NCBI GenBank assembly: GCA_963813155.1
Contig: CAWEYG010000002.1
Location: 512,001-576,000, forward strand
Direction: 5' to 3'
Origin: an uncultured Acidobacteriota bacterium
GTDB lineage: Bacteria; Acidobacteriota; Thermoanaerobaculia; UBA5066; DATFVB01
Length of the DNA stretch: 64,000 bases
Part shown: positions 27,226 through 30,113 of the stretch, in pieces
Layout of the letters: each line of letters begins with the position of its first letter
How positions within the stretch are numbered: the first letter of the stretch is position 1
Position numbers and translations under genes: made by a program
The notes under the pieces: model-generated
Told to the model about the DNA's origin: nothing
Database searches by the model: none
Seen by the model: the letters and a program-made list of their open reading frames with translations, nothing else

Positions 27226-27579
27226 TCAGCGCTCCCGGGCCTTCGTCGGGGCGGGCCTGTACGATTCGCTCATCGCACGCAGCTTCCGGATCGTCTCGCG
27301 CAGGACGCCGACCGCTCCCGGGATCTCGCGTCCGTAGAGCTTCATCTCGGCCTCGCAGTCGGTCATGCCGTAGACGGCGGCATCGCTTTCCAGACGGTTC
27401 TTCTCGAACTCGAGTCGCTCGACGAGCTCGTCGATCTCCGACCGGAGGATGTAGGAGAGGTCCCGATCGCCCAGATAGCGCCCGCACTGGGGGCAGTGGA
27501 TCGTCTGATAGCCGTCGAGCGGCTCGTCGATCACGAACTGCCTCTCGCAGCGGGGGCATTCGAAGACCTCGGGCAACAT
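27226..27579 (-). CDS. Hypothetical zinc-ribbon protein (117 aa)
   Basis: CPRC-x17-CPQC followed by a helical region; GACAAT 9 nt upstream of the ATG. Confidence 0.65.
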   Translation of the reverse strand: MLPEVFECPRCERQFVIDEPLDGYQTIHCPQCGRYLGDRDLSYILRSEIDELVERLEFEKNRLESDAAVYGMTDCEAEMKLYGREIPGAVGVLRETIRKLRAMSESYRPAPTKARER

Positions 27580-27629
27580 GGCAGAAGAATTGTCCGCCTC
27601 GCCGCGGGAGAATGCAACGGGTGGAACGC

Positions 27630-27989
27630 TCACCCGCCGGATTTCTTCGGGCGGAATCCCTCGCTTGACAAAAGTGACAAAACGGTCTCCACGTGGTCGC
27701 CCTGGATCTCGATGACGCCGTTCTTGACGGTGCCTCCGGCGCCACAGCGCGCCTTCAATTTCTTCGCGAGAGCCGCGAGCGGGTCCTCGGATTCTTCGAG
27801 GCCCGTCACGACGGTCACCGTCTTGCCGGCGCGACCCGACGAGCTTCGCGAGACGCGGACACGCTGATCCTTTTTCGGAGCGGCGGAAGTCTTCGAGCAG
27901 GCGCACTGGTCGGCCGGCCACCCGCACTTCGCGCAGCGAGAAACGCCGCCGGAACCTCCGGGGCCCGAGGAATAAACGAGGGGCCTTAT
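27630..27989 (-). CDS. yciH: SUI1/YciH translation initiation factor homolog (probable ATA start)
   Basis: RPLVYSS, CAKC...CAC, GRAGKTVTVVTG, LKARCGAGGTVKNGVIEIQGDH. Confidence 0.88.
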   Translation of the reverse strand: MRPLVYSSGPGGSGGVSRCAKCGWPADQCACSKTSAAPKKDQRVRVSRSSSGRAGKTVTVVTGLEESEDPLAALAKKLKARCGAGGTVKNGVIEIQGDHVETVLSLLSSEGFRPKKSGG

Positions 27990-29359
27990 GCCCGGATTTC
28001 TCCCACTCTTCGAAAGTATTCCGCGAAAGCCATCATTCCGCCGCGGGCCTGCTGCCAGTCGAAGTTCTCGTTCGGAGCATGGTAGCCGTGCTCCGGCAGC
28101 GAGAGGCCGAGGAAGTAAACGGGCGCCTTCAGCACTTTTTCCATCGAAAGGACGGCCCCGATCGAACCACCCTCGCGGACGAAGACGGGCTCTTTGCCGA
28201 ACGCGAACTTCATCGACGCCCTGATCGCATCGGCGTGCGGCCCCGTCGTCTTCGCGAGATAGCCCGGCAGCTCGTGCTCGTGCCAGACTTCCACGTCGGG
28301 GTTCTTCTTCTTCACGAAAGCTTTCACGAGCTTGACGATCTTCTTCGGATTCTGATTCGGAACGAGCCGGCACGAAACGATCGCTGTCGCCGACGGAGGA
28401 ATGATCGTCTTGACGCCCGGTCCGACGTAGCCCCCGGCGATTCCGTGGACTTCGAAGGTCGGCATCATCCAGATCCGCTTCATGACCTCGAGAGGATCGT
28501 CGACGCGAAGCGATTTCAACAGATGGTCTTTCTTGAATTCGCGCGTCGTGAATCCGCACTTGCGCAGATCGTCGAGCTCTTTCTTCGTCGGCTTGACGAC
28601 GTCGTCGTAGAAGCCGGGAATCTTCACCCGCCCCGTTTTCGCGTCGAGGCACTCGGCGATGAGCGCGCAGATCTCGGCCTGCGGATTTCGCGCAGCGCCC
28701 CCGGTCGTCCCGGAGTGCTGATCGGTTTCGCCCGTCCGCAGCGTGAAGCGGAAACCCTGAAGGCCCCGCAGGCCCGCCGGGCAGGCCGGATGCTTTCGCG
28801 AAACCCAGACCGTGTCGGAGACAACGACCGACTGCGTGCGAAAATCGTCGCGGTGGGCCTTGATCGTCGCCTCGAAATGCGGCGAGCCGATTTCCTCCTC
28901 GAGCTCCCACAGGAAGTCGATGTTGACCCGCGCGCCGTTGTCGGCGGCGTACTTCGCCCCGAAGAGTGCGGAAATCGCGGGCCCCTTGTCGTCGGTCGTT
29001 CCTCGCCCGAGATAGCGATCGCCGTCGCGAACGAACCGGAACGGCTCGGTCTTCCAGTCCGGCCCCTCGGCGGGCTGAACGTCGAGATGGTTGTAGATCG
29101 TGGCGGTCGGAAATGCCGGGTCGAGCTCGAACCGTCCGTGGACGAGCGGGTGGCCCCCGGTCTCGTAGACCCGGGCGCGCGCGCCCATCGATTCGAGCAG
29201 CTGCGCGGCGTATCGCGCGCCGCGGGCCATGTCGTCCCGGTGCTCCGGCTCGACGGAGACCGTGGGGATATCCACGATGTCCCGCAGCACCGACTCGAAC
29301 CTGTCCCGCGACGCGTCGGCGTACTGCGAGACCGAATTCTTCGAGAATTGATCCGGCAT
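27986..29359 (-). CDS. M20/M25/M40 metallo-hydrolase (dipeptidase)
   Basis: YNHLDVQP, GRGTTDDKGP, EEEIGS, HAPNE. Confidence 0.9.
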   Translation of the reverse strand: MPDQFSKNSVSQYADASRDRFESVLRDIVDIPTVSVEPEHRDDMARGARYAAQLLESMGARARVYETGGHPLVHGRFELDPAFPTATIYNHLDVQPAEGPDWKTEPFRFVRDGDRYLGRGTTDDKGPAISALFGAKYAADNGARVNIDFLWELEEEIGSPHFEATIKAHRDDFRTQSVVVSDTVWVSRKHPACPAGLRGLQGFRFTLRTGETDQHSGTTGGAARNPQAEICALIAECLDAKTGRVKIPGFYDDVVKPTKKELDDLRKCGFTTREFKKDHLLKSLRVDDPLEVMKRIWMMPTFEVHGIAGGYVGPGVKTIIPPSATAIVSCRLVPNQNPKKIVKLVKAFVKKKNPDVEVWHEHELPGYLAKTTGPHADAIRASMKFAFGKEPVFVREGGSIGAVLSMEKVLKAPVYFLGLSLPEHGYHAPNENFDWQQARGGMMAFAEYFRRVGEIRA

Positions 29360-29372
29360 CCTCACTCCTTGT

Positions 29373-30113
29373 TCACTTCTTCTTTTGAGACTTCGACGCG
29401 TTCCGAACCCGGGCCGAACCCGGCCGGGCTTTCTTTGCGGAAACCTTCCGGGCCGGGGCCTTCCGTGCGCGGGGTTTTGGACGGGCCGACTTCTTTTTCC
29501 GGGAAGGCTTCGGCAAACTCTTCTTCGCTTTCGGGGGGGCTTTCGCAGGGCTCTTCTTCTTGCCTTTCGCGACGATCTTCTCCAGCTTTCGCGGCTCCGA
29601 GCGGGGCGCCTGGGCGGGAGCTTCGGGCGCGGTCGCCGCCTTGAGGGCCATACGCTTCTCGCGGGCCACGCTTCGCGACGCCGCGGCGGCCGCCTTGCGC
29701 TCTTCGGCCCGGTGCTGGCGCTCTTCCCGGGCGGCCTCTTCGGCTGCGGCTCGCTGCGCCTCCCATTTCGGCAGCCGCTCCGCGATGACGGCCGAAAGCT
29801 CGCGCTCGGAGTAGACCTGGATTTTCGGCACCCGCTCTTTCAGCAGATCCTTCCGATCGTCGAACACGTGCATCGCGAACAATTCGAGCTCGCGCGTGTC
29901 CTTCGCCTTGGAGAGGTAGTCCGCCGTCTCGAGAGCGTGGGACGGAGCCTTCGAAAAGTCGATGACGATCGCCGCCGGCTTCTCCCGCCGGGCCACTTCC
30001 GAGAATCGGGGCCAGCGGGGCTCCTCGACGATCAACTGGGCGCCCGACTTGGCGAGCCGCGAGGCCTTCGCGTCGCGAGTCTCGCTCGCGAAATGCAGAA
30101 ACAGCACCTTCAT
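29373..30113 (-). CDS. Hypothetical protein: receiver-like N-terminus, coiled coil and Lys/Ala/Pro-rich basic tail
   Basis: MKVLFL...KPAAIVIDFSKAP; tail KGKKKSPAKAPPKAKKS...; SD-like GAGGT upstream. Confidence 0.7.
   Translation of the reverse strand: MKVLFLHFASETRDAKASRLAKSGAQLIVEEPRWPRFSEVARREKPAAIVIDFSKAPSHALETADYLSKAKDTRELELFAMHVFDDRKDLLKERVPKIQVYSERELSAVIAERLPKWEAQRAAAEEAAREERQHRAEERKAAAAASRSVAREKRMALKAATAPEAPAQAPRSEPRKLEKIVAKGKKKSPAKAPPKAKKSLPKPSRKKKSARPKPRARKAPARKVSAKKARPGSARVRNASKSQKKK

Follow-up and report, generated by a model that had tools for sequence, protein, structure and literature searches.

How a conserved bacterial gene can be translated when no ordinary start codon precedes it is the question raised by yciH in the window analysed here, which is a stretch of 64,000 nucleotides (nt) from an uncultured Acidobacteriota bacterium (contig CAWEYG010000002.1, positions 512,001 to 576,000). 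The gene, a member of the SUI1/eIF1 family, lies directly behind an M20 dipeptidase gene, and its conserved core is preceded by an ATA that overlaps the dipeptidase stop codon as ATAA. This junction occurs in two strains and offers no canonical start; comparisons with relatives indicate that it is a derived state and that yciH was under purifying selection on the branch that carries it. With moderate confidence, we propose that yciH, having lost its own initiation region by deletion, is translated at a low level through termination-coupled restart at the AUA.

The frame that begins at the ATA reads ATA AGG CCC CTC GTT TAT TCC TCG (I R P L V Y S S), and it opens one base ahead of the TAA that closes the dipeptidase gene (...GAA ATC CGG GCA TAA). 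The two genes are co-oriented and share a stop/start overlap of 4 nt, ATAA, at 27989-27986, with AUA at the place where ordinary coupling has a canonical AUG, GUG or UUG. A preliminary description of this DNA had reported an ATA before RPLVYSS at 27989-27987 overlapping the upstream TAA, and direct reading and a script both agreed with it. Its GGGAG is likewise present at 28004-28000, separated from the ATA by 10 nt (AAATCCGGGC), and its claim that no ATG, GTG or TTG stands nearby in frame was confirmed by a frame scan: the nearest upstream is a GTG at 28373, 128 codons away and deep in the dipeptidase gene, and the nearest downstream is the GTG of codon 58 (27818), from which the product would have a SUI1 domain without its first strand and basic loop. 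The near-cognate in-frame codons in the vicinity are the ATA at 27989, another ATA at 28019 (10 codons up) and a CTG at 28058 (23 codons up).

The identity of the gene is supported by matches to TIGR01158 (119 bits, above the cut-off of 111.65) and to PF01253 (73.5 bits, cut-off 25.5, E = 1.9e-20, residues 41-112). Its product has 119 amino acids (aa), within the length of about 100-125 aa typical of the family, and an alignment of 19 sequences of relatives showed an invariant CxxC-x6-CxC knuckle and invariant SUI1 residues (C19, C22, G23, P25, C29, C31, G55, K56, T59, K79, G85, G86, E94, G97 and D98). The best NCBIfam model, NF005297, aligns from model position 11, and TIGR01159 (DRP1) is matched weakly (E 1.4e-4, far under its cut-off). 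The dipeptidase matches NF006053 with 331 bits, under the cut-off of 441.

The existence of the junction outside this assembly was examined in public sequencing runs. The search returned 20 runs from 14 studies, all soil-type metagenomes except one urban and all stored as contigs, and four runs from four studies were aligned. The only RNA runs that turned up contained 3% of the words searched. Record 1 of run X1 bridges the junction over 483 nt (27600-28054) with 5 differences and no gap, and record 19 of run X8, from a different study, bridges it over 549 nt (27727-28275) with 25 differences (4.6%) and no gap. Neither contig has any difference in 27985-28012, and both contain ATAA and GGGAG. 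Base 27987, which the preliminary description had singled out for checking, is therefore unchanged in two studies, the support being assembled contigs and not raw reads, with X1 possibly the source sample and X8 independent. Runs X2 and X7 stop short of the junction and are uninformative on it. An exact-pattern scan of metagenome contigs gave 0 matches to the junction, and a protein-guided scan of such contigs gave no further junction-bearing strain, its 80 loci including none above 71% identity. The idea that the junction is an assembly or sequencing artefact, with ATGA or a retained spacer as the true sequence, can draw on the state of the genome (23 contigs, 90.8% complete, 3.8% contamination, perhaps a metagenome bin) and on a check made by contigs only, yet it is scarcely credible when two independently assembled contigs from two studies, one of them 4.6% diverged, have the same gap-free junction.

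A search for yciH in 41 genomes, which were the window's own (G000) and 40 relatives of the same genus, family and order, found a match in 40; an unpublished genome, G008, is counted only in this tally. The loci examined were those of the 29 best-matching relatives, with 10 further matching genomes left out. All 29 have an ATG or GTG 1-9 codons ahead of the [LVI][VY][YFW] motif. The start nearest to the conserved motif in these loci (L002-L030) is GTG in most and ATG only in a few (L002, L004, L005 and L026). To these were added 80 loci from a profile-guided scan of species genomes of many phyla and the 80 from the protein-guided scan of metagenome contigs. A canonical start was present 6-40 codons before the CxxC anchor in 180 of 190 loci, four loci without the anchor show an ATG, and one (L188) is cut by a contig end, which gives canonical starts in 184 of 189 assessable loci, these not being independent lineages and including several near-duplicates. 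The conserved non-canonical start for which the preliminary description had suggested a survey of orthologs is thus not found. The five loci without a canonical start represent three lineages: L001 (the window), L032 with L086, and L126 with L127. A count of yciH starts that overlap an upstream stop was rejected as unreliable, since it is inflated by ATG followed by A and by long frames open by chance in GC-rich DNA; L005, for instance, was flagged despite the 73 nt between the end of its dipeptidase gene and yciH.

The neighbourhood of yciH in closer relatives indicates how the ATA arose. In 7/7 family-level relatives (5 genomes and 2 metagenome contigs), yciH is likewise preceded by this dipeptidase gene, and in all seven the dipeptidase ends in ...EYFRRVGE[ILM] or ...GELGA, followed after the stop by a spacer of 54-178 nt and the ATG or GTG of yciH. 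In the two genus-mates, yciH begins ATG GCC GAG CCC GAT CGA CCG ACC GTT TAT or GTG ACC CAG CCC GAT CGC CCG CTC GTT TAC. Relative to these, the window is missing the spacer, the start and the first 4-5 yciH codons, and its dipeptidase gene runs on for two more codons (R A) to a new TAA. As every one of these relatives has kept a spacer and a canonical start after the dipeptidase gene, the ATA is what a deletion in this lineage left behind; it did not replace an earlier start codon by substitution. The spacers differ from relative to relative in length (54-178 nt) and have unrelated sequences, and the intergenic region therefore turns over quickly. The 75-nt spacer of locus L003 has two perfect short hairpins, ATCCCCGCGAAAGCGGGGAT and ATTCCCGCTTGCGCGGGAAT. 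This locus belongs to the unpublished genome G002, which provides one of the 29 relatives, one of the seven synteny rows, the L003 rows of the substitution analysis and the outgroup of the branch counts.

The window yciH has no frameshift, stop or indel. Pairwise Nei-Gojobori ratios of non-synonymous to synonymous substitution rates (dN/dS) for yciH were 0.24 for G000-G001, 0.16 for G000-G002 and 0.19 for G001-G002, with a family range of 0.10-0.29. Codon-level parsimony, with G002 as outgroup, placed synonymous and non-synonymous changes in the proportions 10:4 on the G000 branch, 5:3 on the G001 branch and 19:8 on the G002/ancestral branch. For the G000 branch, 4 non-synonymous changes among 14 compare with a neutral expectation of 74% (binomial P = 0.0005). 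These counts argue for purifying selection on that branch and, by extension, for a window yciH that appears to be still under constraint.

A parallel to this junction was found in L032 and L086 (G041 and G042, labelled as Deltaproteobacteria metagenome-assembled genomes), where yciH lies behind a 30S-protein-S1-like (rpsA-like) gene that matches NF005208 with 340 bits on a partial sequence. The rpsA-like gene ends ...AAG GAC GGG AAG TAA, and yciH follows in the same frame without a spacer (L192:930-965 for G041; L193 for G042), opening with CTG TCA/TCC CCT GTC GTT TAT (L S P V V Y S T) and without a canonical start. In a relative, G043 (L194), the upstream gene ends in TAG and is followed by a 27-nt spacer with GGGAGGAAA and then by ATG AAC GAT CGC CGT GAC GAC CGA CCT GTC GTA TAT. 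A 45-nt deletion between TCACC and CGACC, by which GGGAGGAAA, the ATG and 7 codons were lost, explains the difference. Four further relatives have canonical yciH starts, and the query did not find yciH in the other 19 genomes searched. Between G041 and G042 yciH has dN 0.045, dS 0.345 and dN/dS 0.13, with 25 synonymous and 10 non-synonymous codons among 116 (P = 2e-8 against neutrality). Assuming one ancestral deletion, the gene has stayed under purifying selection after losing its Shine-Dalgarno (SD) sequence and start, and it must then be translated, either through readthrough or by ribosomes that restart at the stop or close to it. This raises the prior for expression of the window yciH.

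The third lineage is represented by L126 and L127 (L126:1405-1510, identical in both), in which an in-frame TGA stands 32 codons before the CxxC. These genes have no ATG, GTG or TTG available save an ATG one codon before the first Cys, with CTG and ATT as candidates for the start. Seven consecutive A (GTA AAA AAA CTG) lie beside an out-of-frame ATG and could possibly hide a frameshift or an indel error. Among predicted homologues, 17 have only 74-96 aa, with 66-93% identity, and one more has 106 aa (P0037-P0063, P0085, P0108, P0116). All of these short calls start at an internal V or M (VSRSS..., VRVSR..., VESCAC...), where GTC and GTG vary synonymously. Gene callers might prefer internal GTGs there, or more yciH genes of the clade might have no start upstream that could be used.

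These cases can be joined in a broader proposal, that yciH repeatedly loses its ribosome-binding site and start under purifying selection and is then made only by near-cognate restart touching the upstream stop. The instances behind it would be AUAA after the dipeptidase in the window lineage, UAA-CUG after rpsA in G041/G042 and, possibly, L126/L127. We hold this generalization to be doubtful. If start loss were commoner in yciH than in ordinary genes, YciH synthesis would be tied to the flux of termination and reinitiation or to the stringency of initiation, and an eIF1/DENR-like protein of unknown role would gain a testable link to reinitiation.

The surroundings of the ATA were compared with the coupled starts of the same genome, of which a crude composition-based screen counted 118 ATGA and 103 GTGA junctions. 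An SD-like 4-mer at a spacer of 4-11 nt occurs in 79/221 of these junctions against 30/221 in the control window, and this genome, with 66% G+C, uses SD-led coupled starts. At yciH, the GGGAG had been considered as evidence of a newly created SD sequence, and it was downgraded by a codon-usage null (P = 0.24-0.38): given the peptide RRVGEIR and the codon usage of the genome, an SD-like 4-mer at spacer 4-11 is expected with P = 0.38 and a 5-mer with P = 0.235. Relatives have GTC GGC GAA or similar, and no SD, at the position of the GGGAG, and CGC CGC GTC GGC where the window has CGA AGA GTG GGA before the end of the dipeptidase gene. For synonymous codon choice, the last 8 dipeptidase codons rank at the 0.28th percentile when set against 34,048 internal 8-codon windows and at the 3.1st when set against 2,128 gene ends, and the A needed for the ATA stands in the third position of a GCA codon, one that makes up 3% of the Ala codons in the genome. 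A purine-rich end made of rare codons is what a remodelled initiation region would look like, these being post-hoc observations. The local RNA fold of 27930-28050 is unremarkable (z = -0.35), no promoter-like site was found in 27400-29600 on either strand, and none of the 4 terminator-like sites returned by the terminator scan lies at the junction. In the same genome, infC (L031:2008-2010, minus strand, contig C3, about 666547) starts with ATC; AGGAGG precedes this codon by 6 nt, and a TGA stands in frame 4 codons ahead of it. This ATC is the known conserved non-canonical start of IF3, and it shows that the approach recognises one.

The explanation that we favour, termination-coupled restart, would proceed as follows. 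A deletion in this lineage took the spacer, the ribosome-binding site, the ATG or GTG and about 4-5 N-terminal codons of yciH, so that the conserved RPLVYSS core now adjoins the dipeptidase end without a gap. Both genes must now share one transcript, and ribosomes ending the dipeptidase at UAA would restart on the overlapping AUA, perhaps aided by the purine-rich GAAGAGUGGGAGAAAU stretch, to give small amounts of a YciH that begins fMet-RPLVYSS. Such an N-terminus (M-RP-LVYSS) is within the natural range, as the protein of L101 begins MSRVYST, and in L046 and L085 the start lies 2 codons ahead of the motif. From the sequence we infer the use of the AUA, its coupling to termination and the low output.

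Several findings weigh against this explanation. AUA is a weak initiator, and the GGGAG is within chance and is alone no evidence of an SD sequence; its spacer of 10 nt is found at only 2 sites among the coupled starts of the genome, where the GGAG spacer has its mode at 5-8. ATAA and ATAG overlaps are not enriched, and the 9 others in the genome all have a canonical start 2-25 codons downstream. The codon after the ATA varies, being AGG in the window and AGC in the X1 and X8 contigs. The 10:4 count on the G000 branch spans time both before and after the deletion, which is undated, and the only comparison that is surely post-deletion, window against X8, counts 5 non-synonymous and 4 synonymous differences over 263 nt of yciH; the neighbouring part of the dipeptidase gene has 3 and 16, respectively, a few of its rows perhaps coming from other contigs (Fisher P = 0.068). 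Neutrality (P = 0.18) and a dN/dS of 0.2 (P = 0.19) account equally well for the 5:4 ratio in yciH. Finally, the yciH frame is open for 580 codons at 66% G+C, and an intact frame therefore means little.

The substitutions between the two strains, the chance-level motif with its unusual spacing and a frame kept open by composition alone also speak for a recently silenced gene, in which the initiation region was destroyed, yciH is untranslated and the ATA is coincidental, the gene being intact only from too little time and the rarity of stop codons at 66% G+C. Its loss is plausible, since knock-out or repression of yciH in Escherichia coli caused no growth inhibition according to the available part of PMC7818426. 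We regard silencing, the main rival of restart, as less likely but quite conceivable. The junction has been kept through 4.6% nucleotide divergence with no indel in yciH, the branch count departs from neutrality, and the residues replaced in X8 (2, 26, 34, 35 and 69) are variable in canonically started relatives as well. Moreover, the one base able to make a near-cognate start is present although it requires a rare GCA codon, and the parallel rpsA-yciH junction stays under selection. Another route to YciH, by a start at the ATA of 28019 or the CTG of 28058, or by a -1 frameshift giving a dipeptidase-YciH fusion, would profit from a yciH frame that is open throughout the 3' end of the dipeptidase gene and from the NF005297 alignment, which leaves room for about 10 more N-terminal residues. 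A GGGAG upstream could in principle stimulate frameshifting, as in dnaX. However, an X XXY YYZ slippery heptamer was not found in the last 10 dipeptidase codons, no SD-like motif lies at a usable distance ahead of 28019, and the base by which X8 differs at 28013 leaves the dipeptidase protein unaltered and turns S into P in the yciH frame. The longer homologues include no M20-SUI1 fusion, their single match of 236 aa having SUI1 only, which is weak evidence, and altogether such a route seems improbable.

The preliminary description had gone further and proposed that YciH represses its own translation through the non-canonical start. The structural part of that proposal stood, the ATA being the sole plausible start, overlapping the stop in real DNA; the autoregulatory function did not. 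It would make the AUA a selected device, at which YciH or IF3 discriminates against a near-cognate codon, with feedback as in infC. An AUA start, which the proposal presupposes, is itself our best reading, the infC of the same genome uses ATC, three lineages among the 189 assessable loci are without a canonical yciH start, and work by Lomakin and coworkers from 2006 is said, by its title, to link YciH to the activities of IF3 and eIF1. Against this, the start is not conserved, as orthologs are canonical in all 29 relatives examined and in 184 of the 189 assessable loci, an outcome that the proposal had named beforehand as contrary to it, and the ATA comes from a deletion and not from a substitution in an existing start. 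A 2015 study by Osterman and coworkers reportedly argues, again by its title, against a fidelity role of YciH in vivo. A literature search, with subscription journals largely outside it, found no paper on a non-canonical yciH start or on an AUAA overlap. Autoregulation through start-codon fidelity at yciH is therefore unsupported and in our judgement very improbable, and nothing indicates feedback of YciH on its ATA. The leaderless-mRNA idea that accompanied the proposal does not fit a start lying inside the upstream gene.

The junction invites comparison with known systems. As in infC, a gene for a translation factor has a near-cognate AUH start close behind an upstream stop. The AUU/AUA/AUC start of infC is conserved across bacteria, with a strong SD sequence and IF3-dependent autoregulation, whereas the ATA of yciH is confined to one lineage (0/29 relatives), is deletion-born and has a chance-level SD-like motif at long spacing. 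In the E. coli K-12 pyrF-yciH pair, too, the start of a distal yciH overlaps the stop of a metabolic gene (TGATG), with GGAG 6 nt upstream inside pyrF; the window differs from this pair and from ATGA/GTGA coupling in that the codon is AUA, the overlap is with UAA and not UGA, and coupling is a prediction. AUA also serves as a natural start in Staphylococcus aureus, where, in the accessible part of PMC13009471, the AUA starts of infC, ccpN and citZ yielded about 10%, and up to 30%, of the AUG reporter output, and those of ccpN and citZ were mapped by Ribo-Ret. The ccpN and citZ starts, as the same part describes them, stand alone, have an extended SD sequence and are genus-conserved (citZ within a strain lineage), whereas the predicted ATA start of yciH has a weak one and overlaps a stop.

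Restart next to a stop codon has precedents. For a stop-adjacent AUU, reinitiation and de novo initiation both work in E. coli reporters (PMC3592434, in the part available), and the control of start-codon specificity in coupling is called unresolved in the portion seen of the review by Brown and Wade, 2025 (PMC12548453). Another review, as far as its accessible text goes, describes restart at the first SD-preceded start codon near the stop and the participation of the SUI1-domain factor DENR in reinitiation (PMC5972666). DENR-MCT-1 and eIF2D, which in the available parts of PMC5972666 and PMC7114459 are eukaryotic reinitiation and recycling factors acting on post-termination small subunits, resemble YciH in having a SUI1 domain after a Cys-rich zinc-type knuckle, a likeness reflected in the weak TIGR01159 match. 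The resemblance to DENR only motivates a reinitiation role for bacterial YciH, which would be speculative.

Natural AUA starts are few in bacteria, and gene callers miss them; in the window, a caller would cut yciH to 62 residues or skip the gene. The window and the rpsA-TAA-CTG-yciH junction amount to two natural 'experiments' in which the whole initiation region has been deleted, with selection clearly kept in at least one. They suggest that restart at a near-cognate codon, coupled to termination upstream, can be enough to maintain a conserved gene. Both junctions should be useful for the unsettled mechanism of bacterial reinitiation, for the control of start-codon specificity and for annotation practice. 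For the biology of YciH itself the result is mainly negative: a start codon without a conserved regulatory signal.

The features of the locus are collected in the table below.

Table. Positions of yciH, the dipeptidase gene and the elements at their junction in the window.
Feature	Position	Strand	Remarks
yciH (SUI1/eIF1-family) coding region	27630..27989	minus	119 codons and TGA, counted from the ATA; TIGR01158, PF01253
ATA, proposed near-cognate start codon of yciH	27987..27989	minus	identical in the X1 and X8 contigs, which come from two studies
TAA stop of the M20 dipeptidase gene, overlapping the ATA as ATAA	27986..27988	minus	unchanged in both bridging contigs
GGGAG, SD-like pentamer within the dipeptidase coding sequence, 10 nt before the ATA	28000..28004	minus	
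Last 8 dipeptidase sense codons, CGA AGA GTG GGA GAA ATC CGG GCA	27989..28012	minus	purine-rich, very rare synonymous codons
M20/M25/M40 dipeptidase gene, 459 codons, whose terminating ribosomes are proposed to restart at the ATA	27986..29365	minus	PF01546 and PF07687
First downstream in-frame canonical start of yciH, GTG, codon 58	27816..27818	minus	its use would shorten the SUI1 domain
Alternative in-frame ATA, 10 codons upstream of the yciH ATA	28017..28019	minus	without a usable SD-like motif and without stop overlap

Downstream of yciH, at a distance of 50 nt, lies a gene of 117 codons (27229-27579, minus strand), whose product has two CxxC pairs (MLPEVFECPRCERQ...HCPQCGRY...). It gave only sub-threshold matches to DUF7575 and DUF5817 and has a zinc-ribbon-like appearance.

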